Assembly (NCBI GenBank): GCA_964387845.1
Contig: CAYLXA010000006.1
Span: 1 to 64,000 of the forward strand
Source of the DNA: an uncultured bacterium
GTDB lineage: Bacteria > Omnitrophota > Omnitrophia > Omnitrophales > Abzuiibacteriaceae
Direction: 5' to 3'
DNA length: 64,000 nucleotides
The notes below the pieces were generated by a model. That model did not search any database. It was not told the origin of the DNA and saw only the letters and a program-made list of their open reading frames with translations. This document shows, piece after piece, positions 14,478 to 61,896 of this stretch. Positions within the stretch are counted from its first letter, which is position 1; each line of letters opens with the position of its first letter. The translations under genes were made by a program, and so were the position numbers.

Positions 14478-15070
14478 GAAAAGAAAAAAACGGATTGGGC
14501 ATTGCTGATGATCCAAAAATCGAATCACTCATCAAGGATTTAATCGAAAAGCTCGGCGAGGATCCGTCGCGCGAAGGTTTGCTCGAAACCCCAAAGCGCG
14601 TCGAAGCGTCGCTTCGTTATTTAACGAGAGGCTACAAGCAGGATATCGAAAAAGTCCTCAACAACGCGATTTTTGAAGAAAATTACGACGAGATGGTCGT
14701 GTTAAAAGACATCGACCTTTTTAGTCTGTGCGAACATCATTTGCTTCCGTTTTACGGAAAAGCACATGTTGCGTATCTGCCCAACAAAAAAATCATCGGC
14801 CTATCCAAAATTCCGCGTGTGGTGGACGTATTTGCGCGCCGTTTACAGGTTCAGGAGCGCCTCACGGGACAAATCGCTGACTGTCTCATGCAATATTTGA
14901 AGCCGAAAGGTGTTGCGGTCGTGATTGAAGCGTTTCACTTGTGTATGGCGATGCGCGGTGTCGAAAAGAAAGATTCTTACTGCGTGACGAGCTCCATGCT
15001 CGGCGGATTCAGGTCCGATGAAAGGTCGCGTGCGGAATTCCTGAGTTTGATCGGAAAGCGGAACGGCTAG
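14474..15070 (+). CDS. folE: GTP cyclohydrolase I (FolE)
   Basis: '[20 protein letters not shown]' active-site motif. ATG at 14474 (ATGA overlap with the upstream stop) preferred over the in-frame ATG at 14444. Confidence 0.8.
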
Positions 15071-16125: not shown

Positions 16126-16185
16126 GGCGAGCATTTTAACTGGTAGGAGTCGAAAGTCAAGAAGGTCTGCCAAAGCTAAACAACT

Positions 16186-32128: not shown

Positions 32129-33106
32129 ATGGGTATTTCAGGTTTAAAGAAGGTTGATATTATTGCGACAGTGGGCCCAAGGTCGTTGTCTAAGCAAGTT
32201 ATTTGTGACATGATTGATGCGGGCGCCTCTATCTTGCGGATCAACGGATCGCATGAGAATTTGGAAAGCATTCGAGTTTGTGCTAGCCAGCTACGCAAAT
32301 GGATGGGCAAGCGCGCTAAAATCTTAGTAGATATTCCGGGCAATAAGATCAGGACCATGCATTTGGGCGACCCTATTATTTTGAAACCCGGAAAAGAAAT
32401 TCAGCTTTTCAAGCATCAGGTTAATTTCCCCGGTTTTTTTAAATTGCTCAGAAAGGGTGACACCATTCTGGCGAATGACGGCTTGGTCAGGTTCAAGGTG
32501 CAAAAACCATCCGGCGAGGCAATTGTATTTAAATCAGAAACGGAAGGAAAGCTTGAGAATAATAAAGGATTCCACGTATCACGAAAACTTTCCTTACCGT
32601 TTTTGTTTGAAAAGGATATCCAGATTTTTAAATTAGCCAAACAAATTGGAATCGATTTTGTCGGTCTTTCATTTGTACGCTCGGCGGACGATGTTCGAGA
32701 GGCAAGGCAATATTTCAAGAATAGTAAAACCAAGCTTTTGGTCAAGGTCGAAACCCGGGGTGCGGTTGACCGGCTTGAAGAAATATTGGCGGAATCCGAT
32801 CAAATTTTGATTGACCGGGGCGATCTTGCGGCTGAAATTGGTTTTGAAAATGTTTCATGTGTTCAAACTAAAGTAATCAGCGCTGCCAAGAAGAGAAAAG
32901 TCCGCGTTGCATTGGCAACGCAGTTTCTGCACAGTATGGTTGATCGCGATGTTCCTTTGATTGCTGAGGTGGATTCGCTTTATTACGCAATCCGATCAGG
33001 GATTGATGCCGTTCAAGTATCGGAAGAAACTTCGATTGGCCGGTTTCCCGAAAAAGTAATTCGAGTTTTAACTACCATGATTCAGCAAAGCAAGAGAAAA
33101 GTTTAG
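32129..33106 (+). CDS. pyruvate-kinase-like barrel-domain protein lacking the C-terminal regulatory domain
   Basis: 'KIIATVGPRS', 'RINGSHE' (cf. NFSHG), 'ILVDIPGNKIRT', 'VKVETRGAV', 'IDRGDLAAEIG' all align to PK catalytic motifs. Only 325 aa against ~470 for canonical PK. Confidence 0.55.
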   Translation: MGISGLKKVDIIATVGPRSLSKQVICDMIDAGASILRINGSHENLESIRVCASQLRKWMGKRAKILVDIPGNKIRTMHLGDPIILKPGKEIQLFKHQVNFPGFFKLLRKGDTILANDGLVRFKVQKPSGEAIVFKSETEGKLENNKGFHVSRKLSLPFLFEKDIQIFKLAKQIGIDFVGLSFVRSADDVREARQYFKNSKTKLLVKVETRGAVDRLEEILAESDQILIDRGDLAAEIGFENVSCVQTKVISAAKKRKVRVALATQFLHSMVDRDVPLIAEVDSLYYAIRSGIDAVQVSEETSIGRFPEKVIRVLTTMIQQSKRKV

Positions 33107-34072: not shown

Positions 34073-34969
34073 ATGCTAGAATTAAAATCTACCGCTTCAT
34101 ATGTTGAGACGATCCGGAGCAGACGCGCGGGCCTTAAGTTCAATTTTATCCGATCGGCGCTTTCGAAATTCTATAACCAACTATGCCTAAGATTCGAAAA
34201 TCAGTTTTTCATTTCGTTTCCAAAATGCGGGCGGACATGGTTGCGCTTCTTTCTTGCGAAATACATCGCAGATAAGTACCAAGTTCCTTTCATGCTGGAT
34301 CATTCGGTTGTCATGCGCGCCCTGAGCTTTGGAACCGGATTTAACTTTGCGCCTCATTTTCATTTTACACATTCAGGTTTTGATGTTCCCGATAAGAATC
34401 AATTTAATAAAATAGCAAAAGCGTTTCGAGGTAAAAAAATCCATTTTCTCATCCGGGATCCAAGAGATGTGGTTATTTCGTACTATTGGCACTATCAAAA
34501 AAGACAGAAGCGATTGAATAAGGATGTTCCACGCGATACGCCGCTTTCGGTTTTTCTGCGTCATCCGGAGGTCGGAATTTCTCAAATCATTGAATTCATG
34601 AACCGTTGGTATGATCAGAGAGGAGACTTTAGTCAATTTTCAATTTGGTGTTACCAGGATTTTAAAAAAGATTCCGGTTTGTTATTTAAAAAGCTTTTGG
34701 AAGGCGTTGGAGAAGGGAAGATTGATCAAGAAGTTTTTGAAAATGCGCTGCAATATTCTAACTTCGATAACATGCGGGCAATGGAATTGAATCAAAAAAT
34801 TAAAGATCCTATGTTGCGCACGCTTGATACGGGCGATCCTGAGGCATTCAAAGTGAGGCGGGGTGTTATCGGGGGATATCGTGACTACTTTTCAAAAGAA
34901 GATCTTGTATTTGCCAATTCGGAAATGGCCAAACTGAATACTAATTTTGGTTACTCGGTTGATCGATAG
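34073..34969 (+). CDS. sulfotransferase (Sulfotransfer_1-like; PAPS-dependent)
   Basis: 5'-PSB 'FPKCGRTWL' (cf. PKSGTTW) and 3'-PB 'FLIRDPRDVVISYYWHY'. Confidence 0.7.
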   Translation: MLELKSTASYVETIRSRRAGLKFNFIRSALSKFYNQLCLRFENQFFISFPKCGRTWLRFFLAKYIADKYQVPFMLDHSVVMRALSFGTGFNFAPHFHFTHSGFDVPDKNQFNKIAKAFRGKKIHFLIRDPRDVVISYYWHYQKRQKRLNKDVPRDTPLSVFLRHPEVGISQIIEFMNRWYDQRGDFSQFSIWCYQDFKKDSGLLFKKLLEGVGEGKIDQEVFENALQYSNFDNMRAMELNQKIKDPMLRTLDTGDPEAFKVRRGVIGGYRDYFSKEDLVFANSEMAKLNTNFGYSVDR

Positions 34970-41392: not shown

Positions 41393-42718
41393 TTACGACC
41401 TTTTGATCGGCCATTTTTTCTTCCAGTAAGCCAAGACCTCTTTCTCCATAGACAGGGAAAATAGATATGGCCACTCAATATATTCCTTGGAATTAATAAA
41501 ATAGAGTTGAAAGGTCGTGATTACCATTGTGCTGAGAATGTTTGCGCAAGCAGCGCCGTGGGCTTGAAATTTCGGAATGAGAAATAAATTCAGAACAAGT
41601 GATACAGCGAGTCCTAAAAAATTTGAGATAGCCATTAGCCCGCTTTTCTTTTCCAGCAAAAGGATGATGTTGCAGGTTTGGCTCGGAATGCCGACCAATG
41701 AAGAAATTCCCACAAGAGCGAATAAACCCACTTGGGAACTATAGTCCTTTGGCACTAACTGCGGAATGAGCTGGATTGCCCCCACAATACCCATAATCAC
41801 AATTGCTTGAAAAATAATGCGTGTTTTAACAATAGACATCAGTAATCGATTGCGCTTCTTGATTGCTTGTTGGTCGTGGGCTTCAAAGATATATGGAACA
41901 ATCGTAATTTGATTAAATCTTTCGGAAGCATCAAAGAGCGTGCTAAAAAAATGGTAAGGTGCTAATACGCTTAATGAGGTAATGGCCCCCAGAAGGTATC
42001 GATCGTAGTATTGCCACACCTTTTTTCCCACATCTCCAAAACAAATCGGAAATCCATAGCGGAGACCGCTTTTTATGAATTGTAAATTGGGAACGGAGAA
42101 GGGTTGGATTTTGTACTTACTTAAAAACCAGATAAAAATTGCTAGAAAACTAAAACTCCAGGTCCAGGTAACCGTGTAAATAGTAACCGGCCCAATCAAA
42201 AGAGCTGCGATCATAAAAACCAACCAGAACGCGACTTGCAATATAGTGATATTGTTAAATTCCTTTATCTGTTTTGAATAATTGAAGTAAATCTGGAGCA
42301 GAGGAAAAAGACCGGATAAAAATAGAAGAAAAGACAAATTAAAAAAGAGCTGACCGGACAAGTTGAAATCAATCATGGCGGATATTGTGTCAATTGGTAT
42401 GAAAATCAAGATGAGTACCAGGAGGCAAAGCATTGAAGCTAATTGAAGAAAATTTGAGTATTGAAAATACAGGACCCGGCTTTCCTGGTTCAAAGCCGGA
42501 ATTTCTCTGCGTAAATAATCGCCCCATCCCAAATCCGAAACCGCCATCCACATTCCCATAGTAGCAACAAAAAGGCTGTAGAAGCCGTATTCAGTACTTG
42601 TCAGCTGCCGGACAAGAAAAATGGCCAAGCAGCCTTTTAAGCCGATTGTAATTACTCGAGACACGGTCGAGTGGATGTACTGGCCGATAATGGTGGTTTT
42701 AATTGAGCTCATGAGCAA
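41393..42718 (-). CDS. Wzx-like polysaccharide flippase (MOP/MATE superfamily)
   Basis: ~12 TM helices, 441 aa, N-terminal pattern typical of PST-family flippases. Confidence 0.5.
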   Translation of the reverse strand: MLMSSIKTTIIGQYIHSTVSRVITIGLKGCLAIFLVRQLTSTEYGFYSLFVATMGMWMAVSDLGWGDYLRREIPALNQESRVLYFQYSNFLQLASMLCLLVLILIFIPIDTISAMIDFNLSGQLFFNLSFLLFLSGLFPLLQIYFNYSKQIKEFNNITILQVAFWLVFMIAALLIGPVTIYTVTWTWSFSFLAIFIWFLSKYKIQPFSVPNLQFIKSGLRYGFPICFGDVGKKVWQYYDRYLLGAITSLSVLAPYHFFSTLFDASERFNQITIVPYIFEAHDQQAIKKRNRLLMSIVKTRIIFQAIVIMGIVGAIQLIPQLVPKDYSSQVGLFALVGISSLVGIPSQTCNIILLLEKKSGLMAISNFLGLAVSLVLNLFLIPKFQAHGAACANILSTMVITTFQLYFINSKEYIEWPYLFSLSMEKEVLAYWKKKWPIKRS

Positions 42719-42747: not shown

Positions 42748-44124
42748 TTAGGAAGAAATCTGGCGCTCTCTATTAAATGTCTTCAGGCGGGAAGCCAAAT
42801 AAATAACTGCGATGAACAGCCAAAAAGTCCGTTCCCTTAAATGACGATTGTACAGATAGCTGGGAATTAGGCAGATGAATCCAAACAAAATAACGGCGTG
42901 AAATTCTTCCCATGCTGTTCGACGCGAGAACCAGAAATTCTGGAATGCCAGGAATAGAAAATATCCCATGAATATCAAATAGGCCAATGTCCCGACGATT
43001 CCGGTTTCGGCAAGAAATTGCAAGAGAGTACTGTGCATTTCATATCCACGAATGGATACTTGATAATCGGATTGGATAAAGCGGCCGTACCCAATTCCAA
43101 GAGTTGGATGATTTTCAAAGCTGTGTTTGGCGGCATCGATTTGGTTTCCTATAAAACCCTTTCCGGAGGCGAGGGATGACATTTTCTTGACGTTGCGCAA
43201 AATCGAGTTTTGAAAAATCTGAGGATTTAAATAGCTCATGAGTGAAAAAACAAGAGCGCACACAATTGCAATGGAAGCAAAAAGCGCAGACGCTTTCGGA
43301 GATTTCTTGCACAGATACACGGTAATAACGAGAATCCCGGTCGCCAGACTGGGGAAAACGCTGAAGCGTGCGGTAAAAAATGCGCAGAGTATCAGCAGCG
43401 GGGCAATGATCCAGATTCTTAGGCGACTCTTAATGCTTTGACCGGGCGCGAAAGAGAAGGCAAATAGCGCGAAGAAAGTGGTGGTAGCAAATGCGGAAAG
43501 CTGGCCGGGGGTTCGGAATGGCCCCTGGATACGAAAACTGTGCGGAGACAAAAAGGAATTTGCAAATACGCCCGGATGAATGATGTCACCGATAGAGAAA
43601 AAGCCGGTTCCTTTTCCGATTTTCGGTGCTTGGTTAGATAAGTCACTCATATCGATCAAAGAAACCGTGATTGCAATGATGGCGGCAACAGTCCAAGCGC
43701 GCATGATCTTGAAAAAATCATCCTCTGACTGTGTGTGTTCGGCGATTAACAGGAAAAATAACATGCCGACTACAATGGCAAATGGTTGGCCTTCGCCATA
43801 GATCACTGCTTTAATGGTTGATTCGCTCAGAAGAGATAAAGAGATGGCTGATAGAAGGATCAGAAAAATCAATGACGGATAAAGCGGAAAAGAAAATGAA
43901 TCACGCAAAATGACTTTTCGAATTACAAAAACCAATAATAAGGTAAAGAGCAGAATATCGGGCAGGGCAATGCGGCCTAGAATTTCCCCTTTAAAAAAAG
44001 AAAGATTGATTAGGCAGATGGTTGAAATCCATAGATAAAGCAGCCAATTTGGATTTGAAATGCCTTTTGCGAAAACCCAAAGCCATGCCGCGCAGAGTAT
44101 CGCCAGGATAGCAAGGGTTAGCAT
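42748..44124 (-). CDS. Wzy_C/O-antigen-ligase-family polytopic membrane protein, paralogue of the 28014..29429 CDS
   Basis: 'EMHSTLLQFLAETGIVGTLAY' and the C-terminal 'YLYNRHLRERTFW' block shared with the other copy. Confidence 0.5.
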   Translation of the reverse strand: MLTLAILAILCAAWLWVFAKGISNPNWLLYLWISTICLINLSFFKGEILGRIALPDILLFTLLLVFVIRKVILRDSFSFPLYPSLIFLILLSAISLSLLSESTIKAVIYGEGQPFAIVVGMLFFLLIAEHTQSEDDFFKIMRAWTVAAIIAITVSLIDMSDLSNQAPKIGKGTGFFSIGDIIHPGVFANSFLSPHSFRIQGPFRTPGQLSAFATTTFFALFAFSFAPGQSIKSRLRIWIIAPLLILCAFFTARFSVFPSLATGILVITVYLCKKSPKASALFASIAIVCALVFSLMSYLNPQIFQNSILRNVKKMSSLASGKGFIGNQIDAAKHSFENHPTLGIGYGRFIQSDYQVSIRGYEMHSTLLQFLAETGIVGTLAYLIFMGYFLFLAFQNFWFSRRTAWEEFHAVILFGFICLIPSYLYNRHLRERTFWLFIAVIYLASRLKTFNRERQISS

Positions 44125-44127
44125 AAA

Positions 44128-45357
44128 TTAATGGCGTCTGTTTTGTTGAGTGATGATAGAAATCAATAGAACGCTCAGGCAAGACAGTAAAAAAGAGTTC
44201 GACAGTGATAATGCAATCGAAGAAATTAAAAAATCCCTTCGTGAGAAAACCACTTTTGGCTCGTCCATATTTTCAAATCTAAAAATTTTTGGCTTGGTAG
44301 ATTCGATTTCTTTGAAGAGAGAGTTTTGGCTTTCGGTGACGGCATTTTTATCCGCTTGAAGCGTGTCAAGCCGTGCTATCGTATTTTGCAACTCTGCTTT
44401 GGTATGCTGCAAAAACGATTTAAAAGACGAAGTGTGTGTGGCGAAGTTTATAGAAAGAGCCTCCGATATACTGATAAGCCCCTGGACCACAAGATTTAAA
44501 TTTGATTCCAAATCGTTAAGTTCTCGCCCTATCTTGGTTTTTGTAGCCTGTTCAAAATTTCGAAGCAATGTGCTTTCGGACTGATGATTTAACAAATGGC
44601 GGGACAATTGAATAGCGTTTTGAGCACTTTCCAAAACCTGCTTGGGATAATCGGTGCTCAAAGCTTTTAACTGAAGTTCAGCTTTAAGCAATTGATTGAT
44701 CAGTTTGTCGCTTTGTTCGGTCGTGACGAGCGAACGTTCTTTGAGATTGGCTAAAGTAGGTGCATTGAAACGGTTGAGAATTTCATTCATTTGCGCATCG
44801 ATTTCTTTCTCTTTTTGAAAAAATCTGGACTGTTCTGCCTTCAGTTCTTCAACGTAAAGTTTAAGATTTTCCAGCTCTTCCTCATGCTCCTGATAACAAA
44901 CCTCAGTCCACGCCTGTAAAACTTTTGACGCTATTTCTTGATTCGGATGCTGAACATAAAAGATGATCATATAAGCATTTACGTATTTGCCGTTTGAGGC
45001 CGGCATATTTCCAATGTCTTGGAGCTTAATCGAGATCGCATTGGATATTTGGCTGTTGCTGAGTTTGATATTTTGTTCTTCGAGTTTAAATCTTGTTTCC
45101 GTGATGATTTGGGGCTCGTGCAAGAAAAGGAGCCTGAGATTTAAAAGATGGGAGTAATTAATGTAAGCCATCTCGCTTTTTGCGAAATATTTTTTTTCTA
45201 ATTTCGGGCCTTTGAATTGATAAAACTGATACCCAAAAGAAAGAGCAAACGCGACGAAGGAGAGAGAAATGAAAAGGACTTTCTTTTGCCAAAAAAAAGC
45301 AATGAGTGTCCGTAAATCAATAGGATCTTGCAATTTCTTTGTCTCAAGTCTGTTCAT
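44128..45357 (-). CDS. Wzz/polysaccharide co-polymerase (chain-length determinant) family protein
   Basis: N-terminal 'IDLRTLIAFFWQKKVLFISL' + TM, a long heptad/coiled-coil periplasmic region, and a C-terminal TM. Confidence 0.5.
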   Translation of the reverse strand: MNRLETKKLQDPIDLRTLIAFFWQKKVLFISLSFVAFALSFGYQFYQFKGPKLEKKYFAKSEMAYINYSHLLNLRLLFLHEPQIITETRFKLEEQNIKLSNSQISNAISIKLQDIGNMPASNGKYVNAYMIIFYVQHPNQEIASKVLQAWTEVCYQEHEEELENLKLYVEELKAEQSRFFQKEKEIDAQMNEILNRFNAPTLANLKERSLVTTEQSDKLINQLLKAELQLKALSTDYPKQVLESAQNAIQLSRHLLNHQSESTLLRNFEQATKTKIGRELNDLESNLNLVVQGLISISEALSINFATHTSSFKSFLQHTKAELQNTIARLDTLQADKNAVTESQNSLFKEIESTKPKIFRFENMDEPKVVFSRRDFLISSIALSLSNSFLLSCLSVLLISIITQQNRRH

Positions 45358-45469
45358 GGATTAGATAAAAGTGGTGTGCTAATAGAGGAGTATGATAACA
45401 TATCATCTTTAAATAACAACAAATAACAACATGATTTATAGTCCAATTTGAACACTTTTTAAGAGAAAA

Positions 45470-46381
45470 ATGAGCCCTCATTCAACTGGTTTTAGAGATT
45501 GGTTGAGGATATTTTTGTCAACTTGCGCGGCTTCAATATTATTTTTTTTGCTGGGAAGCGAACTTTTAATACGGGCAAAAGTGGCTCCGCAGGATTTGTT
45601 CGAAAAGCACCGGCACTTATTTTTTAATTCGGACAAAACAAACGCGGTTTTTGGAGATTCGCACGGCGCTCAAGGCTTTACGGGAGAGCCTGATTTTGTG
45701 AATCTGTCGTTTCCTTCCGAGTCAATTGACATCATATACAAGAAAATAAAATTATATTTTAAAAGCCGAACGCCTCACAAAGTGGTTCTTCAAGCCGACC
45801 CTCATCTATTTTCTGATTACCGCATGAAGGAGCGCGCCGATGATTATGTTGAGCTTTTTAAGAACCCGAGACTGCCTTATTTTCAGATTTTGACGCCTCG
45901 GCATCAGAAGTTCCTGCTTTATTATTGGAAAAATTTTTTAGCTGGAAGCGATTTTAAAAATCATTTTCAAATGAACCCAGACGGTTCTCAAATGATGGAT
46001 AAAAAAGAGAAAAGATCCCACGTTTATGATCTTCAGGGCAGGATTTTCTTGCAGAGACCTCGGGGAGATTTTGAGAAATCTCACAGTATGAAAAAATATT
46101 TTGAAGTTTTAGATTATTTAAAAAGCCGGAACGCGGATGTTTGTCTCGTCACATTTCCGGTTTCTCCTGCCTATGTTGAAGCGGCTCGGAAATTTCCTGA
46201 ATTTGAAAAGGCTAGACAATTTCTGGAGAAAATTGCCGCGCAACACGGCTTCCGTTATGCCAGTTATTGGGATGCTTTTTCCGATGCGGGCATGTTTGTT
46301 AACGAAGATCATCTTGGCATCGAAGGCGCGCGACAGTTGACTGGCAAAATCATGACGGATTGTTTTCATGGAAAAAATTAA
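45470..46381 (+). CDS. membrane-anchored hypothetical protein (possible SGNH-like esterase)
   Basis: N-terminal TM; 'AVFGDSHGAQGF' resembles a GDS block. Otherwise unassigned. Confidence 0.3.
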   Translation: MSPHSTGFRDWLRIFLSTCAASILFFLLGSELLIRAKVAPQDLFEKHRHLFFNSDKTNAVFGDSHGAQGFTGEPDFVNLSFPSESIDIIYKKIKLYFKSRTPHKVVLQADPHLFSDYRMKERADDYVELFKNPRLPYFQILTPRHQKFLLYYWKNFLAGSDFKNHFQMNPDGSQMMDKKEKRSHVYDLQGRIFLQRPRGDFEKSHSMKKYFEVLDYLKSRNADVCLVTFPVSPAYVEAARKFPEFEKARQFLEKIAAQHGFRYASYWDAFSDAGMFVNEDHLGIEGARQLTGKIMTDCFHGKN

Positions 46382-47339
46382 ATATTTTGTATTTAATTTT
46401 TGGAATTATTTCTGGAGAATACCGCCGTTCTCTATTTTCTACCGGGCGTATTATTTATTTAGAGCCAGCTGGCCGGTGTGGTTTTATGTTTTAAACAAAG
46501 CGCCACGCGAGTATCATCGGAAGCATCGTTCAAATCTTAATCAAATCCAAAAGCGAACAGTGGAAGATTTAACGAGGTTTGGCATCGGTTCCGCTCACTT
46601 CAGCGACATGTTTCCCGAGCTGGATTTTTCACTATTTCAAAAGAGCCTGGCCGAAGCTATGTTGATAGGTGAGAACCAAAAACAAATCGAAGAACAGTCG
46701 AAAGGGCAAAGTGCCCAGAGCAAAAAATATTACCTGGTTGAATTATGGAAAAAGCCGTTTCATTTTGACTTTGCCAATCCGTTCATGTCCTTAGCTGCCA
46801 GCGAAAGAATTTTAACAATTGTGAATCATTACCTGGAAATGGCTGCGCACTTAAGTTATTTGAATTTATGGTATACGGTCCCCATGGAAAAAGCGGCGAA
46901 CTACAGTCAGCGCTGGCATCGTGATCCGGATGATCGAAGGTTGGTCAAATTATTTCTTTATTTAAATGATGTGGATGAAAACAGCGGGCCGTTTCATTAT
47001 GTTTCAGGATCGCACGATCAGGGCCCCCACAGAAATGTACTGCCTTCAAGGCCGCCTTATAGCACTTATCCGAAAGAAGGAGAGGTTGAGAAGCTGATTT
47101 CCAAAGATGATATACGCCAATGCACGGGCCGGGCCGGGACGCTTATTTTTTGCGATACCAGAGGGCTGCACAAGGGCGGGCATGCCACTAAAAATCCAAG
47201 GATTTTGTTTAATGCAGTTTATTTGACAGAAGGAGCCATTCCTTCCGAGAAAAGAAAAATTAATTACATTCTAAATCAGCCAAATCGCACGCATAATCCT
47301 CTAGCTGATTACGCATTAAGTTGGGCAGAATCTAGTTAG
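46368..47339 (+). CDS. PhyH-family Fe(II)/2-oxoglutarate-dependent dioxygenase
   Basis: 'RWHRDPDD' (HxD) ... 'NSGPFHYVSGSH' (distal His) in a ~320-aa protein. Confidence 0.55.
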   Translation: MEKIKYFVFNFWNYFWRIPPFSIFYRAYYLFRASWPVWFYVLNKAPREYHRKHRSNLNQIQKRTVEDLTRFGIGSAHFSDMFPELDFSLFQKSLAEAMLIGENQKQIEEQSKGQSAQSKKYYLVELWKKPFHFDFANPFMSLAASERILTIVNHYLEMAAHLSYLNLWYTVPMEKAANYSQRWHRDPDDRRLVKLFLYLNDVDENSGPFHYVSGSHDQGPHRNVLPSRPPYSTYPKEGEVEKLISKDDIRQCTGRAGTLIFCDTRGLHKGGHATKNPRILFNAVYLTEGAIPSEKRKINYILNQPNRTHNPLADYALSWAESS

Positions 47340-48030
47340 ACTTTTTACGTAAATATAGTTCCGCCAAAGCCAAATCAATTTTTGAATCAATATTAACAGA
47401 GCGTTCCACGGGCATGACGTAAGCCAGGCTTTTTTTGCCCCAAAGCGAGTGTTTTTTCATTAAAGTATCCCGCCGGACTGCATATACGGCCCCGTTTAAA
47501 GCAAATACGCGCGGCAAATCCTGACGCCTAATGCCTTCATGCCAGAATTTTGGCAGGAAAGGTTTCAAAGTCCCCTTATGAATTTGCATGGTTTTGCCCG
47601 GATGCGGATCCGAGATTTCGGAAACACTGATAACCGAATCAGCCTTTGAGTCTCTTAAAAGCATGATGGATCGATCGATGTCTTGCGAAGTTCTTAATGG
47701 CGCTGTGGGCTGAAGCAAAACAATGAAGTCATATCGACCTTGCTTTTTTTCCATAAAATTAACGGCATGTTTGAGCACGGAAAGAGAGCTGGCACGGTCT
47801 GTGGCGAGACGCGAGGGGCGAGTAAATGGAGTCACCGCGCCATATTTTCTTGAAACAGAAATAATTTTGGTGTTATCGCTCGAGACAATGCAATCGGTCA
47901 AGTAACGGCTTTTTTTCGCGGCTCTAATACTGTATGCGATAAGGGGAAGCCCAGCCAATGGCTTGATATTTTTCTTCGGAATACCTTTTGATCCGCCTCG
48001 AGCCGGAATAACGCCCAAAACCCTCAGCAT
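47332..48030 (-). CDS. CMP-nonulosonic acid synthetase (acylneuraminate cytidylyltransferase, NeuA family)
   Basis: 'VIPARGGSKGIPKKN' cytidylyltransferase P-loop. ATG at 48030 chosen; the upstream extension is unlikely. Confidence 0.75.
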   Translation of the reverse strand: MLRVLGVIPARGGSKGIPKKNIKPLAGLPLIAYSIRAAKKSRYLTDCIVSSDNTKIISVSRKYGAVTPFTRPSRLATDRASSLSVLKHAVNFMEKKQGRYDFIVLLQPTAPLRTSQDIDRSIMLLRDSKADSVISVSEISDPHPGKTMQIHKGTLKPFLPKFWHEGIRRQDLPRVFALNGAVYAVRRDTLMKKHSLWGKKSLAYVMPVERSVNIDSKIDLALAELYLRKKSN

Positions 48031-48992
48031 ATTGAAGGTACCTCGCGCTCTTCCCAATTGTAAATCACGTCTTTTCCGCAATGGCTTGCAAAACGGCCTC
48101 TGTAATAATTTCGGTTCAACAATTCCTCTTCACTTAGGCCGGGATTCTCAATTCCTATCATGCTTTCGTATTCAGCGGATGAAATCTCGGCATGGATTTT
48201 TTTATTCAGATTTTCACGAGAAAGTTTACAGGCGGCAGTAAGTTCTGAAAGCTGTTTCGGATTGATTGAAACCGGGCCGTCCCTCGTTTCTTCCGGCTTG
48301 AGTAAAGTAAAATGGCGTTCAATGACGGAAGCGCCGAGCGATATAGCGATAAAAGAAGCTTTTAGGCCATCTTTGGCGGGTGCGGAATGGTCGCTAAATC
48401 CAACGGATGGCGTAAATTGCAGAAGAAAATTCATTCTCCTTAAATTTAATTTATCCAGCGGTGTCGGGTATCGTGTTACACAATGCAAAAAACTAAATTT
48501 TTTATTTTTTAGAATAGATGCTGTTTTACGGATTTCGTCGTCATAAGTACCGCCCGTGGAAATGATCAACGAATCAAATTGTTCCGCAAGCTCGCGAATC
48601 ATGGGGAAGCTTGCGCAATCGATGCTTGCAACTTTGATAGTCGAAAATCCCAACGATTTTACAAGCGGGATTCGATGGCGCGAAAAAACCGTTGTGAGCG
48701 GAAGGATTTTGGCCTTTTGGCAGGTTTCGAGGAATATGTGGTGATCTTTTTCGGAAAGCTCTAGAGGCTTTAAACGGTTCTTTTCAGCCGCGCAGGGGCG
48801 TTTGATGATTTTCTGAATGCCATTTTCGATTTTTCCTTCTTCAAATTCAGGGCGATAAGTTACGTCATCTGCGAAAATGGTTTGAATTTTGGCGTAGGCG
48901 GCACCGTTTTCTTTGGCTGCCCACACCATCTCTTTTAGAAGGGAAATGCTTCCGTTATGATTTTGACAAAATTCGACAATAATTTCTGTCAT
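48024..48992 (-). CDS. nonulosonic acid synthase (NeuB/PseI/LegI family, PEP-dependent aldolase-like)
   Basis: 'EFCQNHNGSISLLKEMVWAAKENGAAYAKIQT' is a NeuB-family N-terminal TIM-barrel motif. Confidence 0.8.
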   Translation of the reverse strand: MTEIIVEFCQNHNGSISLLKEMVWAAKENGAAYAKIQTIFADDVTYRPEFEEGKIENGIQKIIKRPCAAEKNRLKPLELSEKDHHIFLETCQKAKILPLTTVFSRHRIPLVKSLGFSTIKVASIDCASFPMIRELAEQFDSLIISTGGTYDDEIRKTASILKNKKFSFLHCVTRYPTPLDKLNLRRMNFLLQFTPSVGFSDHSAPAKDGLKASFIAISLGASVIERHFTLLKPEETRDGPVSINPKQLSELTAACKLSRENLNKKIHAEISSAEYESMIGIENPGLSEEELLNRNYYRGRFASHCGKDVIYNWEEREVPSIC

Positions 48993-48997
48993 TGGAT

Positions 48998-50167
48998 TTA
49001 GTAGGCGAGTTTCTTTTCGCTTTCAAGCTTGATGTCTGCCAAAATATCCGCGATTTTTTTGCCTGCGTTTCCGCGGCCGTAAAGGTAATCACGGGAATAA
49101 ACGCCGTGTTTTAATTGCTTCTGAATAGCGCTTTTGATTTTTGGAGTATCGTTCTGGACTTGAATGACGTTTCGGCCCATTTCGCGTCCTCCTTGGCGGT
49201 CTCCGATTGTGACAGCCGGAATTCCTAAAAACGAACCTTCGCGGATGGCCATGCTGGAATTGCCGACGATGCAAGCTGAATTAATTGCAAGCGAAAGAAA
49301 ATCTTCCGCAGGCAAGTTGCGGATAAAGTGCACATTGGGGATCTTGTTTTGTTCGCGGTAAAGCCTGATACCTTTAGAGATTTGATCAGAGCCGGCGTCG
49401 ACATTAGGCCAAAACCAGAAGGTAGGCATTCTAATCTCAGAAACAGCGTCCAATGTCTTTCTAACTTGGCTTAATCCCGATTGTTCTTGTGTGGTGACGG
49501 GGTGCTGCAGGACAATCAAATAGCTATTTTTCTTTGGTGTAAACATGGCGCCAACGCCCTTACGCATGACTGAATCCAAAGGCCGCGTTTTCCCCCTTGA
49601 AACATCCAACGCTAAATCAATGGACGGACAGCCGGTAAAAAAAACATTTCTTGGGTTTTCGCCCAATCGGATAATTCTCTTTTTTGCAAGCGCGGTCGAA
49701 GCAAAATGATAATTAGAAAGCTTGGTCACGGCATGACGTACTTTTTCATCGATGGAGCCCGTGATTTCACCGCCCTGGACGTGAGCAACGGGAATATTCA
49801 TATAAGAACCTGCGATAGCAGTTGCAATGGTTTCGTACCGATCAGCCACGGTCAAAACAATATCAGGTTTCAGATTGGAAAAAGCAGTAGAGAGTTCTAG
49901 GATGCTCAAGCCCGTTGTCTTGGACATTGTCACCAGGTTTTCCCCTTCCAAGACAGAATAAATTCGTTCGGCCACCCGGAAACCGTCTTTGACGATGACA
50001 TCAACGACCGATCCGAATTTTTCAAGCAATGCAGAAGCGCCCACGATGAGTTGGAGTTCAAGAGCAGGGTGCGCCTGAACCGCGCGTAAGACAGTCTTGA
50101 TTCTGGCGTAGCTAGCCCGGTTGGTGACGACAATCGCAATTTTTCTTTTTTGCTTCCTTTTTTTCAT
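48998..50167 (-). CDS. UDP-N-acetylglucosamine 2-epimerase (hydrolysing), NeuC family
   Basis: 'KIAIVVTNRASYARIKTVL', 'VAHVQGGE', 'GNSSMAIREGSFLGIPAVTIGDRQ' epimerase_2 motifs. Confidence 0.8.
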   Translation of the reverse strand: MKKRKQKRKIAIVVTNRASYARIKTVLRAVQAHPALELQLIVGASALLEKFGSVVDVIVKDGFRVAERIYSVLEGENLVTMSKTTGLSILELSTAFSNLKPDIVLTVADRYETIATAIAGSYMNIPVAHVQGGEITGSIDEKVRHAVTKLSNYHFASTALAKKRIIRLGENPRNVFFTGCPSIDLALDVSRGKTRPLDSVMRKGVGAMFTPKKNSYLIVLQHPVTTQEQSGLSQVRKTLDAVSEIRMPTFWFWPNVDAGSDQISKGIRLYREQNKIPNVHFIRNLPAEDFLSLAINSACIVGNSSMAIREGSFLGIPAVTIGDRQGGREMGRNVIQVQNDTPKIKSAIQKQLKHGVYSRDYLYGRGNAGKKIADILADIKLESEKKLAY

Positions 50168-51696
50168 GATCGTGTTTCTGAAACCGGCGCAGGCTCTCGA
50201 GTTTGATTTAAGTGAAAAGTATTTTTAATCTCAGCAAGTAAAGCTCTGGTAACATCCTTAACATTTTCCCAAGTGACCACATAAGGAACCGCGTAGGGCT
50301 GGCGCCGTGTTCCGGGGTGGCTGCCTTTGAAAAGAGCTGTGATGTATTTTAATAAATTTTCGCGGTTGGGGCGAAAATTTTTTAGAAGCTTTTGAATAAC
50401 GGAGGGCAGGTCTTTGATGTTTTCTAGATAAAAGGCGTTGTCATAATTTTTGTAAAAAGTGTCGCCAAGCACAACCAATGGCTTTTCAAGCAAGATAGCT
50501 TCCATCCCGATTGTATTGGATATGGAAACAATTAAAGAAGCGTTCTTCACTATATCAAAGCTTGGCAGCTGAGTATCTAAAAGTCTCACATTGTAAATGG
50601 AGCGCAGCCGGCGATATTCGGAAAGCGGTCTTCGGCCCAGAAAAATCGGATGGTCCTTAACGTAAAGTCTGTAGCCGGCCGGCAAACTTTTGCTGATATT
50701 TTCGATCACGGCGAGCTGATCGCAATAAAAGGGAGCCAAAATGAGCGTTGAGCGTTCGGGCTGTACTTGGAGCGGGTAAAAAATGTATTTTTCACCGGCA
50801 ACCGGTTTTTCGAAAAGATTGAGCGCTTTTCCCAGGTGGTGGCGGAACACGCGCGAAATTCTTGAGCGCACCAAATCCAAAAATTTCATCCGGCTGATAT
50901 CCAGTGGATCCGTAAAGTTATCCCAGCTGAAAGTAAATAAATTAATCAGTGCTTTAAAGCTGAAGTTGGGAACCTTGCTCCGTGTTTTTAAATAAAGCAG
51001 AGGTTCGTAATGATTGGTGTATTCGTGCAAGAAGGATTCGGCATGCTTTCTTTCATCGGTTGTTAATTCACGCGTCTTCAATTCCCGATAGGCAAGCTCG
51101 ACCGGTTCGCGTGAATCAAGGCAATCGTCATAAATCGAAAGGCGATGATTCAATTTTAAACTTCCCAGGGACCAAACGGGCACGCCTCGCTTTTTACCGA
51201 TTTTATAAATTAAATAGCTTAGCATGCAGCAAACGTCGTCCATGATAATCAAATCCGGCTGCTGCCGCTCAAGCGCCTCCTCCACAAAATGGATGCAAAG
51301 CTCCAGTGCACGCATGGCTTTATCATATGGCAGCTTTGAAATGTAACGGTCTGAAGAAATGTAAAAGGGTAGATTGGGGATGCCCAGTTCTTTTTCTTTT
51401 TGTTCTAAGAAGGAGAGGTCGTAGGGCGCCGACCAGTTTTTGGAGCGCAAATAATCCGTAAAAATACAGATTTCGTTCCAGGTCTTGTCTTGCTCGAGAA
51501 GTCTCTTGGCACTGATTTGTCCGTAAGAAATTCCTGAAAATTTTACAGATGGGATATCTTGACGCAGAAGTACGCTGATCCGCTGAAAGAAAATCTCATA
51601 AATTGATAAAAAGAAAGTAATTTTCATTAAATTGTCTAAAAGACCGCCCTTTAACTGGAAGGAAAGGAGTATAAACACAAAGATAAAACGCGTCAA
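50164..51696 (-). CDS. GT-B-like capsule-biosynthesis protein, KpsS/KpsC (Capsule_synth) family, or alternatively TagF-like
   Basis: 'YIFYPLQVQPERS' (cf. KpsC/KpsS 'PLQVxxDS') and a downstream 'YVKDHP' block. Family assignment is uncertain between Capsule_synth and Glyphos_transf. Confidence 0.45.
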   Translation of the reverse strand: MTRFIFVFILLSFQLKGGLLDNLMKITFFLSIYEIFFQRISVLLRQDIPSVKFSGISYGQISAKRLLEQDKTWNEICIFTDYLRSKNWSAPYDLSFLEQKEKELGIPNLPFYISSDRYISKLPYDKAMRALELCIHFVEEALERQQPDLIIMDDVCCMLSYLIYKIGKKRGVPVWSLGSLKLNHRLSIYDDCLDSREPVELAYRELKTRELTTDERKHAESFLHEYTNHYEPLLYLKTRSKVPNFSFKALINLFTFSWDNFTDPLDISRMKFLDLVRSRISRVFRHHLGKALNLFEKPVAGEKYIFYPLQVQPERSTLILAPFYCDQLAVIENISKSLPAGYRLYVKDHPIFLGRRPLSEYRRLRSIYNVRLLDTQLPSFDIVKNASLIVSISNTIGMEAILLEKPLVVLGDTFYKNYDNAFYLENIKDLPSVIQKLLKNFRPNRENLLKYITALFKGSHPGTRRQPYAVPYVVTWENVKDVTRALLAEIKNTFHLNQTREPAPVSETRS

Positions 51697-58449: not shown

Positions 58450-59454
58450 ATGCTATTACATACGACTGCTAGATACATATCACGAAGATTATACTCTCAC
58501 GTATTTGCCAAGACTCCTCAGACAAAAGCGTTGTGGTGGTCATTCCGCGAGCATGTCCTGAATCGTTTTATACGGGGCGAGACGATCAAGGTTGAACTTT
58601 CCGCTAACTGCAATGCGCGCTGTTCGTTTTGCTGGATGTTTCAATCCGAAGCTAAGCCGGCAGGATTGATGACGCTGGAGAATTTCAAAAAATTTATTGA
58701 TATCAATAAAAACGATTTCAAAAAGCACCGGACGCACATCCAGCCGTTTTTTAACGGGGAAGCGCTGGTCAATCCGCATTTTTTTGATTTTATCGATTAT
58801 ATTGTCGCCAACAAAATTCCTTTGGCCCGTCTGGATACCAACCTCGGCGTGAAGCGCGATATGGATAAATTGATGAGCTATCCGTGGCCTGTCATTTGCG
58901 TCAACATCGGAGGAATCACAAAAGAAGTGCACGAGAAGGTTATGAAGACGAGATGGGAAATTGTAACTGAGAACTTGAAACGAATTTTACAAATCGACAA
59001 GAGCCGCGTGTTTATCAAAGCAACTCCGGTGAAGATTAATCTTCATCAAATTAAATCATTTCCACAATTCATGAAGGAGATGGGCGGCGACCCGGATCGT
59101 GTTGAATTTGGGACGACGGGTTTTAATATTCCTGCTGAAGCGACTGATCAGGAAATCGTGGATTATTTTAACGAGGTTGTTTCTCCGGAGGTTAACGAGC
59201 ATTTGCGATTTACGTATGATCTCTCGAAGCCCCGTTATGATATCAAAGCCAAAAGGCCGGGATGTCATTTTTTAAATGACTGCGTCACGTTTGATGGCAA
59301 GTTGACCATTTGCTGTCATGATCAATTGGGAAAACTCAACGTAGGAAACAGTTTTGAAACTCCGCTTTATGATCTGAAGAAATCCAAGAAGTATCATGAT
59401 TTTCGTCTGGCAGGCATTGATCAAAAGTTTAAGATGTGCAAAGAGTGCAATTAG
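58450..59454 (+). CDS. radical SAM protein with a C-terminal SPASM-like Cys cluster
   Basis: '[12 protein letters not shown]' (CxxxCxxC). C-terminal 'CHFLNDC...CCHD...CKEC' cysteines. Confidence 0.55.
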
Positions 59455-60510: not shown

Positions 60511-61896
60511 ATGTTATCCAACCACCAGTCTTCCGAAAGGGATCTTTCCCAGAGATTTGGCAGAAATAAAACCAATGAAATTAGCCGTCTCATTTATGAA
60601 ATCGGGAGGCGGGAAGGGCTCGCATCGGATGAAGTCCTTAATCAAGCGCTTCAAGCCATCTCGCCGGCTGCGACTCTAGAATCTGTCGCCTTCGCTTCTC
60701 TTAAGAAAGCGCTTCTCAAACGCCGCTATCCCAGTTTTTCGGAAGAAGAGTTTTCCAAAATTTATTTTGCGCCGCTGCGTTTTCCGGAAAGTCGGGAAGA
60801 GGCCGATCCTCAAACAAACGATTTTCGGCCGGATGAAATTGTCATCGCACGGCATGCCAAAAATTTTCCACTCACGAAACGAATCACGAGTTTTTGGCCC
60901 GAAGTTCCCGTCCGCGAAATTGAATCGCTGGATGAGTTGCGAAGGCCCAAGAAAGAGTGGCTGGGCGATTTCGGTAAAAAGCGAATTGCGATTTCCAACG
61001 AACACTTTGATTTGGTCAAACCGTGCCCCTGTACGGCGAATGCCTGTTCCTGCAATTATCATGTCCTCAACATTGGCTACGGCTGCCCGTACGATTGCAC
61101 CTATTGCTATCTGCAGGATTATCAAAATCTGCCGGCCATTGTGCTGCCGGCTGACCTGGAACCATTTTTAAACCAAATGGGCTCAGTTCTGAAGCAAAAA
61201 CCGGGATTTTTTACACGTATCGGCACCGGCGAGTTTGCGGATTCTTTGGCACTCGATTGGCTGACGGAATATTCCAAAACCCTGGTTCCGTTTTTTAAAA
61301 ATAAGCCGGTCATTCTGGAGCTGAAAACCAAAAGCGATTGCGTAGAAAATCTGCTAGAACTTGATCACGGCGGCCGTACGGTGATTGCGTGGTCCGTCAA
61401 TCCCGAGCGCTTTTCTAAGGAAGAAAAAAGAACAGCGCCGGTTCATAAGCGCCTTGAAGCTGCGCAGCTTTGCGAAAAAGCCGGCTATGGAACGGCTTTC
61501 CATTTTGACCCGATCTTACAAGCTGCAAATTGGGAAGAAGATTATCAAGATTTGGTCCGCGATTTATTTAATCATGTAGGCATTTCGTTGCGTTGGATTA
61601 GTCTGGGAACGCTGCGGTTTCACAAAGACTTGCGCGGCGTCGCCGAATTCAGGCATCCGGACAGCGAAATTTTCTTAGGAGAGCAGCGTTTGGATGTTTC
61701 CGATCAGAAAATGCGGTATGCGGATGAAGCCAGAGTCTCTGTTTATCGGAAAATGATTTCTTGGATCAAGCAGTTCAACGAAAAAGTTCCGATTTATTTA
61801 TGTATGGAACCGCCCGAAATTTGGAAAACCGTCTTTGAGAGCAAGCCCTATCAGGGAAGGATTGACAGCTGGATTGCGCACGGTTCAGCGCGTTAA
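60511..61896 (+). CDS. SPL (spore-photoproduct-lyase)-family radical SAM protein with a ~150-aa N-terminal extension
   Basis: 'GCPYDCTYCYLQDY' matches the SPL-family CxxxCxYCYLQ cluster motif; 461 aa. Confidence 0.5.
   Translation: MLSNHQSSERDLSQRFGRNKTNEISRLIYEIGRREGLASDEVLNQALQAISPAATLESVAFASLKKALLKRRYPSFSEEEFSKIYFAPLRFPESREEADPQTNDFRPDEIVIARHAKNFPLTKRITSFWPEVPVREIESLDELRRPKKEWLGDFGKKRIAISNEHFDLVKPCPCTANACSCNYHVLNIGYGCPYDCTYCYLQDYQNLPAIVLPADLEPFLNQMGSVLKQKPGFFTRIGTGEFADSLALDWLTEYSKTLVPFFKNKPVILELKTKSDCVENLLELDHGGRTVIAWSVNPERFSKEEKRTAPVHKRLEAAQLCEKAGYGTAFHFDPILQAANWEEDYQDLVRDLFNHVGISLRWISLGTLRFHKDLRGVAEFRHPDSEIFLGEQRLDVSDQKMRYADEARVSVYRKMISWIKQFNEKVPIYLCMEPPEIWKTVFESKPYQGRIDSWIAHGSAR

Follow-up and report, generated by a model that had tools for sequence, protein, structure and literature searches.

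The window, by which we mean the whole 64,000-nucleotide stretch of DNA analysed here, carries a compact operon of four minus-strand genes, next to which lie two plus-strand genes linked to the same cassette:

45470-46381, plus strand: DltD/SGNH-like protein, probable O-acyl tailoring component, cassette-linked (weak Pfam DltD match)
46368-47339, plus strand: PhyH-family Fe(II)/2-oxoglutarate dioxygenase, probable tailoring enzyme, cassette-linked (Pfam PhyH)
47332-48030, minus strand: CMP-nonulosonate synthetase of the acylneuraminate cytidylyltransferase family (CTP_transf_3)
48024-48992, minus strand: NeuB-family PEP-condensing nonulosonate synthase of a SAF-truncated clade (Pfam NeuB, tree)
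48998-50167, minus strand: NeuC-type hydrolysing UDP-GlcNAc 2-epimerase, GNE-like subgroup (TIGR03568, tree)
50164-51627, minus strand: probable CMP-nonulosonate glycosyltransferase, Capsule_synth or KpsC/KpsS-like (Pfam, PDB match, linkage)

Arranged by coordinates, the operon reads cytidylyltransferase, NeuB-like synthase, NeuC epimerase and KpsC/KpsS-like gene, with gene ends that overlap or lie no more than 5 nt apart. The preliminary description had placed an epimerase, a PEP-condensing synthase and a CMP-transferase at 47332-50167 on the minus strand, and open reading frames for all three are found there. Its reading of these genes as the core of a nonulosonic acid (NulO) pathway also held, NeuC being of the hydrolysing type and the NeuB-like protein a NeuB-family enzyme. 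The fourth co-directional gene was missing from that description; it overlaps the start of neuC by 4 nt. Domain matches of the operon products and of the plus-strand enzymes have E-values far beyond chance. The three core genes most likely produce a nine-carbon sugar resembling sialic acid, and its activated form, for a polysaccharide of the cell surface.

The epimerase matches Pfam Epimerase_2 with 240 bits and clears the 235.9-bit cut-off of the NCBIfam model NeuC_NnaA (TIGR03568) with 370.6 bits, whereas it stays below the cut-off of the non-hydrolysing WecB model (81.7 vs 210.15); the clustering with WecB that would have spoken against the earlier assignment was not seen. Its best PDB match is the epimerase domain of human GNE (4zht, 241.9 bits), followed by Acinetobacter baumannii LegG (5xvs, 192 bits) and NmSiaA (48 bits). 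In a neighbour-joining tree with a small reference set it groups with human GNE (97/100), and E. coli K1 NeuC and the LegG enzymes of A. baumannii and Sulfitobacter fall elsewhere. Six contexts of such GNE-like enzymes (the window, L086, L087, L088, L095 and L096) show NeuC, NeuB and CTP_transf_3 with no 4,6-dehydratase.

The synthase matches Pfam NeuB (PF03102) over residues 22-264 (164.6 bits, E 3.4e-48), but it remains below the equivalog cut-offs for NeuB (TIGR03569, 164.8 vs 399.65, with model positions 3-267 of 329 matched) and for PseI (145.3 vs 340.25). A Pfam search found no SAF domain (PF08666) in it, and hhalign pairs its tail with no more than the linker and the first SAF strand; most of the SAF domain is lacking, Arg314 included, and the KRPG region is absent. 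Arg314 is described as essential for the activity of bacterial NeuB (PMC8208679). The barrel, on the other hand, conserves NmNeuB residues E25, K53, Q55, T110, F112, K129, S132, S154, Y186, S213, H215, E234, H236 and D247. N184 is replaced by Thr, at a position where canonical sequences have Ser, Thr or Ala, and E134 by Asp. The latter change is common to archaeal and eukaryotic synthases, for which 6-phosphorylated substrates have been suggested as the link (PMC8208679); neither a kinase nor a HAD phosphatase was found in the window.

The AlphaFold2 model of the synthase (pLDDT 94.5), a monomer that gives no view of tail arginines at the neighbouring active site, has a NeuB-like fold, its top Foldseek matches being NeuB, SpsE and PseI (E 1e-17 to 1e-14, 27% identity at 1e-17). 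DAHP and Kdo-8-P synthases match at E of about 1e-8 with 12% identity, and they give no sequence-level matches. We therefore rejected such an identity, which the preliminary description had regarded as fatal to its assignment. In a neighbour-joining tree with a small reference set, whose Leg member (L091) is validated through gene context only, the synthase belongs to a clade of its own (bootstrap 100/100). A long branch divides it from E. coli K1 NeuB, and it also stands apart from the Sulfitobacter LegI and two PseI (Sphingobium, Campylobacter jejuni). Thus, when both enzymes were placed among the Neu, Leg and Pse clades, as had been proposed, NeuC found its place with GNE and the synthase fell outside all three. 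Judged by its sequence, this key enzyme is a member of a large branch that is uncharacterised and distinct from the known synthases of the Neu, Leg and Pse types.

Members of this SAF-truncated clade come from Nitrososphaerota, CPR, Chloroflexota, SAR11, Prochlorococcus and Omnitrophota. The clade is set apart by invariant residues adjoining the active site (C9, Q10, D125, C126, R300, N312 and W313) and by a four-residue insertion around D208, near the active site. Its database names are inconsistent ('general stress protein', 'diacetyllegionaminate synthase', 'SpsE'), no member has a known product, and we found nothing specific to it in the literature on NulOs in Omnitrophica, Thaumarchaeota, SAR11 and Prochlorococcus or on teichulosonic acid and Kdn synthases. 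Among 82 loci, a CBS-nucleotide-sugar dehydrogenase neighbours the synthase in 60, other usual partners being ManC with HAD, NUDIX, AP_endonuc_2 or unknown proteins. NeuC lies nearby in only 11 of the 82, mostly beside a second, canonical NeuB. Since NeuC is rare and the dehydrogenase common, the usual substrate of the clade may not be ManNAc. Two families among the unknown neighbours (c8 and c15) were considered as diverged NeuC-like epimerases and rejected (hhalign probability <1%); they are related to one another (92%).

None of these usual partners (CBS-dehydrogenase, HAD, ManC, 2-hydroxyacid dehydrogenase, AP_endonuc_2, NUDIX) was found in the window, whose synthase is an atypical member of the clade, fed by NeuC. 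Its arrangement is seen again in just one genome, from Candidatus Omnitrophica (SICL01000065.1), where the module of capsule-type glycosyltransferase, PhyH, NeuC, NeuB and CTP_transf_3 is kept at 62-72% identity; a GNE-like NeuC is also paired with a SAF-truncated NeuB in L037 and L039.

The open reading frame of the cytidylyltransferase extends over 47332-48081, and the true start is likely the ATG at 48030, in agreement with the 232-aa product annotated on the source contig. It matches CTP_transf_3 (PF02348) with 73.2 bits (E 3.4e-20) and reaches no specific equivalog, scoring just under the PseF cut-off (171.4 vs 205.7) and at most 52.5 bits with the KdsB models (cut-offs 155-281). A cytidylyltransferase follows the SAF-truncated NeuB in 65 of the 82 loci, and that of the window is 46-62% identical to these. 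By these comparisons it is predicted to be of the NulO rather than the KdsB type.

As for the fourth gene, its open reading frame reaches a TTG at 51696, the ATG at 51627 giving the 487-aa product called in NCBI. Pfam Capsule_synth matches residues 302-416 only (29.4 bits, cut-off 20). More distant matches are those to the NCBIfam BFO_1060 glycosyltransferase (E 2.8e-7, 30 vs a cut-off of 200), to KpsS (E 3.8e-5, 23 vs 600) and to KpsC in the PDB (6mgd, E 1.4e-5). BFO_1060 is an orthologue of the Tannerella forsythia transferases for Pse and Leg derivatives (PMC5420450). Homologues of the window protein stand beside NulO genes in L086, L093, L094, L022, L039, L040, L057 and L061, and inside the pse cluster of Sphingobium. 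The product is probably a KpsC/KpsS-like nonulosonate transferase.

The cassette is adjoined by genes for a Wzx flippase (41393-42718) and Wzy (42748-44124), and sulfotransferases are encoded at 30571-31434 and 34073-34969. The PhyH protein (Pfam PhyH, 33.9 bits) has a 66% identical orthologue directly upstream of neuC in the Omnitrophica locus L086, a 48% identical one in L094 and a 27% identical homologue in the Sphingobium pse cluster. The DltD/SGNH-like protein is a weak match, just under the Pfam DltD cut-off (22.1 vs 22.7 bits); its orthologue in L086 (55% identical) adjoins an MBOAT gene. Neighbouring methyltransferases co-occur with the module. In the syntenic relative L093, whose transferase is 79% identical, the DltD/SGNH-like gene, NeuC and PhyH are all missing. 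The flanks are preserved in a close relative, with a different NeuB-cytidylyltransferase pair between them and without NeuC. The NulO cassette is a swappable module.

We propose, with a probability of about 0.55, that UDP-GlcNAc is the source of a nonulosonic acid which the four-gene operon (51627 to 47332), part of a surface-polysaccharide locus of the Wzx/Wzy type, produces, activates and probably transfers. The GNE-like NeuC would hydrolyse and 2-epimerise UDP-GlcNAc to free ManNAc, as the equivalog model and the phylogeny suggest. The SAF-truncated synthase, whose active site is intact and whose substrate is suggested only by the adjacent NeuC, would then use ManNAc and PEP in a metal-dependent condensation (His202, His227), whose product would be a 5-acetamido nonulosonic acid built on the Neu5Ac skeleton. 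This sugar would be converted to its CMP form by the cytidylyltransferase and added to the repeat unit by the KpsC/KpsS/BFO_1060-like protein, a role to which its recurrent linkage points. Tailoring of the sugar or the polymer is probably the task of the PhyH dioxygenase, the DltD/SGNH-like protein and the methyltransferases nearby. Against a Neu5Ac-type reading stand the absence of Arg314, the rarity of NeuC near the clade, the E134D change and the lack of NeuC in L093.

A possible but considerably less probable reading is that the product is a different, perhaps undescribed ulosonic acid. The synthase would have a preference of its own; its usual partners suggest, for instance, hexoses, their 6-phosphates or uronic acids. 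NeuC would then provide an N-acetylated analogue of such a substrate, or later steps, PhyH being one candidate, would carry the product outside the Neu, Leg, Pse and Kdn series. The invariant residues beside the active site, the dehydrogenase linkage with its variable feeder genes, and the PhyH and methyltransferase genes that accompany the module are consistent with this, as is a Serratia NeuB fused to an AP_endonuc_2-type domain, which gives Kdn and Neu5Ac without NeuC (PMC9000132). On the other hand, the residues of the barrel that bind PEP, metal and aldose are those of NeuB, the dehydrogenase, HAD, ManC and NUDIX partners are all absent from the window, and directly upstream in the same operon stands a hydrolysing NeuC, whose only known role is to supply a ManNAc-type aldose to a NeuB-type enzyme. 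More speculatively, the clade might constitute a fourth functional class of nonulosonate synthase with products outside Neu, Leg, Pse and Kdn. Elsewhere it would be coupled to the dehydrogenase and maybe yield an oxidised (dicarboxylic) C9 acid; in the window, the GNE-like NeuC would have taken the place of the dehydrogenase module, and the linked PhyH dioxygenase and methyltransferases would turn the sugar into an undescribed modified sialic acid such as a hydroxylated N-acyl form. That the cassette is a decaying or silent transferred element adding nothing to the glycan is very improbable: its content does differ between close relatives (L093 and the window), but none of the four open reading frames is disrupted, their starts and stops are coupled, the catalytic residues are conserved, and orthologues at 62-85% identity are retained in other genomes.

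The preliminary description had also suggested that a plus-strand 4,6-dehydratase and a DegT aminotransferase feed a legionaminic-type variant. Both genes exist: a PglF-like membrane SDR at 21151-23034 (Polysacc_synt_2, 342 bits) and a DegT aminotransferase at 26187-27311 (427 bits). Together with an N-acetyltransferase they would yield UDP-diNAcBac, from which the NeuC-like protein, acting as LegG, and the NeuB-like protein would lead to Leg5Ac7Ac. We consider this product unlikely, even though the pair shares a 45-kb glycan locus with the cassette, the TIGR03568 family takes in LegG-type enzymes, as the match to A. baumannii LegG indicates, and NeuC and LegG references are mixed in the tree, so that specificity may switch easily; a GNE-like NeuC also occurs with SDR and DegT genes in L039. 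Against it, the two proteins fail the LegB (30 vs 475) and LegC (268.7 vs 420) models, and their genes lie at least 20 kb from the cassette, on the other strand and in a separate operon, flanking a Bac_transf priming phosphoglycosyl transferase. Searches of the 16-62 kb interval revealed no hexapeptide (LbH) acetyltransferase, the conserved L086 cassette has neither dehydratase nor aminotransferase, NeuC goes with GNE rather than LegG, and the synthase lies outside the LegI clade. LpxD (15067-16173) is the sole LbH protein. The PglF-like and DegT proteins more likely supply the phosphoglycosyl transferase beside them with a 4-amino-4,6-dideoxy sugar for priming. A pseudaminic route was rejected as well: PseI, PseB (148 vs 407.75 for the PglF-like protein) and PseC (332 vs 423.5 for DegT) are below their cut-offs, neither PseG nor PseH was found, and the synthase is apart from PseI in the tree.

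By itself, finding NulO genes clustered in an environmental bacterium is unsurprising. The earlier view that nonulosonic acids outside pathogens are under-explored is not supported: there is published work on NulOs in non-pathogens, as there is on environmental EPS that is both sialylated and sulfated (PMC8157484, PMC10483923). Sulfotransferases are indeed present in the window. NulO products are usually assigned by placing NeuB in the Neu, Leg or Pse clades, and the window synthase falls outside all of them along with hundreds of relatives in abundant uncultured lineages, which makes genome-based predictions of sialic acid type unreliable for these organisms. With its synthase fed by an ordinary NeuC, the compact four-gene cassette offers the easiest biochemical entry to the product of this clade, and it points to a candidate family of CMP-NulO transferases related to KpsC/KpsS.

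Compared with known systems, the operon shares with the NeuC-NeuB-NeuA pathway of E. coli K1 and Neisseria meningitidis the three reaction types, the Pfam families, the operon arrangement and the catalytic residues of the synthase. It differs in that the synthase, only about 30% identical, lacks Arg314 and most of the SAF domain and belongs to another clade, in that NeuC is 29% identical to K1 NeuC and of the GNE-like subgroup, and in that NeuD, NeuS and NeuE are missing and the transferase is KpsC/KpsS-like instead of a polysialyltransferase. In the animal GNE-NANS-NANP-CMAS route, NANS retains an AFP/SAF-type domain. The epimerase domain of GNE is the nearest match of the window NeuC, and the synthase has Asp at the E134 position as eukaryotic and archaeal enzymes do (PMC8208679), but the ManNAc kinase domain and the HAD phosphatase of that route are absent from the window. 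Like the window synthase, the 'environmental' NeuB proteins of group I (PMC8208679), which come from uncultured organisms, have a NeuB barrel with no SAF domain, keep the catalytic residues and frequently carry E134D; that paper gives neither product nor gene context, whereas here the clade is delimited, its conserved C-terminal tail described and its usual partners tabulated. The LegB-LegC-NeuC-NeuB-acetyltransferase genes of a Sulfitobacter faviae plasmid (L091) share the hydrolysing 2-epimerase and the NeuB-family synthase, although both enzymes are in other clades and the cassette has no equivalents of LegB, LegC and LegH. Finally, the candidate transferase is far below the family cut-offs of the KpsC/KpsS beta-Kdo and T. 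forsythia BFO_1060 transferases, and its N-terminal 290 residues have no match; its C-terminal nucleotide-sugar-binding region (residues 294-440) does match both families, which use CMP-activated ulosonic acid donors.

The three minus-strand genes that the preliminary description had read as the core of a nonulosonic acid (NulO) pathway are present as back-to-back ORFs with CTP_transf_3, NeuB and Epimerase_2 domains, together with a transferase gene that shares 4 nt with the start of neuC (start codon read from the sequence):

50164-51627, minus strand: transferase (CapsGT) of 487 aa, weakly matching glycosyltransferases of the Capsule_synth / KpsS / BFO_1060 type
48998-50167, minus strand: 2-epimerase NeuC (Epimerase_2, 240 bits; NCBIfam NeuC_NnaA)
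48024-48992, minus strand: NeuB-like synthase (Pfam NeuB, 164.6 bits)
47332-48081, minus strand: ORF of a CTP_transf_3 cytidylyltransferase (CTP3), for which the source-contig gene call starts at ATG 48030 (232 aa)

For this cassette, direct observation covers the genes present, their operon packing and family placement, active sites that remain intact, and a linkage that is conserved; homologue searches find the closest relatives of its proteins in Candidatus Omnitrophica MAGs. We consider it very likely (probability about 0.85) that the cassette produces a CMP-activated NulO.

The synthase is predicted, from its sequence and its model, to be competent in NeuB-type catalysis. Its alignment with NmNeuB shows that E25, K53, Q55, T110, F112, K129, S132, S154, Y186, S213, H215, E234, H236 and D247 are kept, while E134 is replaced by Asp and N184 by Thr. 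An AF2 model (pLDDT 94.5) matches NeuB, SpsE and PseI structures at E values of 1e-17 to 1e-14, versus about 1e-8 and only 12% identity for DAHP and Kdo8P synthases, placing the protein in the NeuB family and not with the latter enzymes. Canonical NeuB and PseI identities were both rejected, since the equivalog models match the barrel alone and score 164.8 (cut-off 399.65) and 145.3 (cut-off 340.25), respectively, and the domain search returned no match to a SAF domain in this protein. It belongs to a SAF-truncated clade whose conserved 55-residue tail (consensus ...LSxEELLNRDYYRGRFAS...IYNWE) corresponds, in profile-profile alignment, to the SAF linker and first strand only and lacks the segment bearing Arg314 in NmNeuB. 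More than 1,800 homologues were found, the best 120 of which are about 317 aa long, 53-78% identical, spread over archaea and many bacterial phyla, and inconsistently named in their source annotations.

We built a neighbour-joining (NJ) tree (100 bootstraps) with E. coli K1 NeuB, the synthase of a Sulfitobacter Leg cluster (LegB, LegC, NeuC, NeuB, acetyltransferase), Sphingobium and C. jejuni PseI, and 13 other SAF-containing NeuBs. On a long branch, a single clade (100/100) unites the window synthase with its Omnitrophica orthologue and 27 clade members, apart from the Neu, Leg and Pse references of this tree. Clade-specific invariants (C9, Q10, D125, C126, R300, N312 and W313) and a 4-residue insertion around D208 flank the active site. 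Two of these, C9 (two residues past the catalytic E7) and C126 (directly past D125), are missing from canonical NeuB, LegI and PseI. In metal-dependent Kdo8P and DAHP synthases a Cys where strand 1 ends serves as a ligand, and by analogy metal coordination may differ in the SAF-truncated synthases. "Environmental" NeuBs without SAF and with the E134D change have been noted earlier, with no product assigned (PMC8208679).

The gene neighbourhoods of the clade were compared by fetching 80 loci from species-representative genomes and clustering every ORF up to 6 kb from the synthase, with counts taken over 82 loci. A CTP_transf_3 gene follows the synthase in 65, and a 572-aa CBS plus nucleotide-sugar dehydrogenase protein (TIGR03026, 359 bits; nearest to UDP-ManNAc dehydrogenases, yet below their cut-offs) is found in 60. 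Further partners are a TagB/BFO_1060-like transferase (25 loci), a HAD protein (24), a 2-hydroxyacid dehydrogenase (23), a function-unassigned family of 385 aa (18), ManC (15), AP_endonuc_2 (12) and a function-unassigned family of 347 aa (10). NeuC occurs in only 11/82 loci, mostly adjoining a second, canonical SAF-containing NeuB. The window ORFs include none of the clade's usual CBS-dehydrogenase, HAD, ManC, 2-hydroxyacid dehydrogenase, AP_endonuc_2 or NUDIX partners, and the CapsGT-NeuC-NeuB-CTP3 order is found in the window alone among the 82 loci. This order is kept in Ca. Omnitrophica SICL01000065.1, which holds CapsGT, MBOAT, SGNH, PhyH, NeuC (72%), NeuB (63%) and CTP3 (62%).

The comparison also brought out an apparently undescribed conserved module (loci L006-L085, e.g. 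L006:4000-13000, L028:3800-11000 and L068:3900-9000), ordered CBS-dehydrogenase, one alternative gene, NeuB, CTP_transf_3 and often 2-hydroxyacid dehydrogenase. The alternative position is taken by ManC+HAD, by a NUDIX-like protein, by AP_endonuc_2, or by one of two related families (385 and 347 aa). The module occurs in Nitrososphaerota, CPR, Chloroflexota, SAR11 and Prochlorococcus, among other hosts, and its pathway may lead to a C9 acid that is oxidised (uronic-derived). In Chloroflexota/Anaerolineae (L004/L013, L006, L007, L015) the NeuB-module gene string also has genes for a sulfotransferase and for an ATP-sulfurylase fused to APS-kinase, pointing to NulO-containing glycans that are sulfated in these hosts. 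The window has two sulfotransferase genes; at a threshold of E below 1e-5 they show no homology to the Chloroflexota ones. A gene for PAPS synthesis was not found among the window ORFs scanned, which took in all but a few in the stretches before 16 kb and beyond 62 kb. At L004:14119-16023 (also in L013), a NeuB with SAF is fused to AP_endonuc_2 (sugar-phosphate isomerase/epimerase-like) and followed by a Capsule_synth protein, the architecture of Serratia marcescens NeuB, which yields Kdn and Neu5Ac without NeuC (PMC9000132).

The window NeuC is of the hydrolysing type, as proposed, scoring 370.6 bits on the NeuC_NnaA equivalog (cut-off 235.9) against 81.7 on the non-hydrolysing WecB model. 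Among solved structures it comes closest to the human GNE epimerase domain (241.9 bits), versus 192 bits for A. baumannii LegG and only 48 for N. meningitidis SiaA. An NJ tree groups it with GNE (97/100), apart from the group into which E. coli K1 NeuC and the two LegG references fall, and relatives from its subgroup (L087, L088, L095, L096) lie in NeuB-NeuC-CTP_transf_3 clusters without a 4,6-dehydratase. The GNE grouping and these dehydratase-free clusters favour conversion of UDP-GlcNAc into ManNAc, with moderate support only, given that the other group of the tree mixes NeuC with LegG. A Neu5Ac-type skeleton is the reading to which we lean slightly; a product outside the known series seems rather unlikely.

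The preliminary description had proposed a legionaminic-type product, fed by two plus-strand enzymes. Both genes exist:

21151-23034, plus strand: PglF-like SDR
26187-27311, plus strand: DegT aminotransferase

Their scores and position do not bear out such a role. On the LegB model the PglF-like protein reaches 30 (cut-off 475); DegT reaches 268.7 on LegC (cut-off 420) and 332 on PseC (cut-off 423.5). An LbH acetyltransferase was not found in the glycan locus. The pair brackets a Bac_transf phosphoglycosyl transferase, 20 kb from the cassette and on the opposite strand. A dehydratase and an aminotransferase around a phosphoglycosyl transferase are the usual arrangement for a 4-amino-4,6-dideoxy-HexNAc priming sugar (Pgl, WbpM systems), and we infer this role for the pair by analogy. 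The legionaminic route finds no positive support, and we regard it as improbable.

The resemblance of CapsGT to KpsC/KpsS and to the BFO_1060 family is confined to its C-terminal nucleotide-binding region, with KpsC 6mgd as top PDB match (E 1.4e-5); BFO_1060 is an orthologue of Tannerella forsythia transferases of Pse/Leg derivatives (PMC5420450). The 25 homologues found for CapsGT make up a small unnamed family that recurs beside NulO genes in L086 (the SICL01000065.1 locus), L093, L094 and five clade loci. In the complete pse cluster of Sphingobium sp. TKS pTK1, a 26% homologue annotated "hypothetical protein" lies between pseF and pseG (L090:3876-5252), and a PhyH-family gene (L090:9932-10825) is a 27% homologue of the window PhyH dioxygenase at 46368-47339. 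The latter is also kept in L086 (66%) and L094 (48%), and from this recurrence it is probably a NulO- or glycan-tailoring enzyme.

From about 16.2 to 62 kb the window is a single large Wzx/Wzy-type surface-polysaccharide locus with Gmd, GT2 and GT4 enzymes, two small Bac_transf priming transferases, three Wzy_C proteins, a Wzx flippase, sulfotransferases, deacetylases, GNAT and FemAB-like acyltransferases, SGNH/AlgX proteins, several methyltransferases and a radical-SAM/SPASM protein. The first 16 kb hold futalosine-pathway menaquinone genes and LpxD, indicating a diderm organism. The contig comes from a metagenome assembly (Logan SRR15237813) and is also present at NCBI as a contig of 199 kb. 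One Wzy_C (O-antigen ligase/polymerase-like) membrane domain is fused to a GT4 glycosyltransferase (23044-25575, 843 aa), the other two being separate (28014-29429 and 42748-44124). Among sulfotransferases and a priming transferase, a 325-aa protein (32129-33106) consists of a pyruvate kinase barrel without the C-terminal domain (PK 201 bits; TIGR01064 260.6 against 306.4), a possible role being PEP or pyruvate metabolism linked to the glycan. Two radical-SAM proteins are conserved at the locus edge, the SPASM one (58450-59454) at 92% identity in L093 and one resembling spore-photoproduct lyase (60511-61896) at 75%.

L093 is a closer relative of this surrounding locus, with flanking genes 55-92% identical and a KpsC-like transferase in common (79%). 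Where window 44128-51627 has DltD-like, PhyH, CTP3, NeuB and NeuC genes, it carries a GT4-NeuB(56%)-CTP3(57%) cassette (L093:10001-15836) that lacks NeuC, PhyH and the DltD-like gene. With conserved flanks and differing cassettes, the NulO cassette is an exchangeable module within an otherwise conserved locus.

In the proposed pathway, NeuC would convert UDP-GlcNAc to ManNAc, the SAF-truncated NeuB would condense this with PEP to an acid with the Neu5Ac skeleton, and its CMP ester would be formed; the KpsC-like protein would transfer the NulO to the Wzx/Wzy-assembled polymer, with hydroxylation, O-acylation or methylation as a putative last step. NulOs outside pathogens and their combination with sulfation had been put forward as under-explored and unusual; PMC8157484 and PMC10483923 already document NulO clusters in environmental bacteria and sialylated and sulfated EPS. 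Unusual here are the class of the synthase and the hybrid cassette, in which a GNE-like NeuC is paired with a synthase whose normal partner is a dehydrogenase module.
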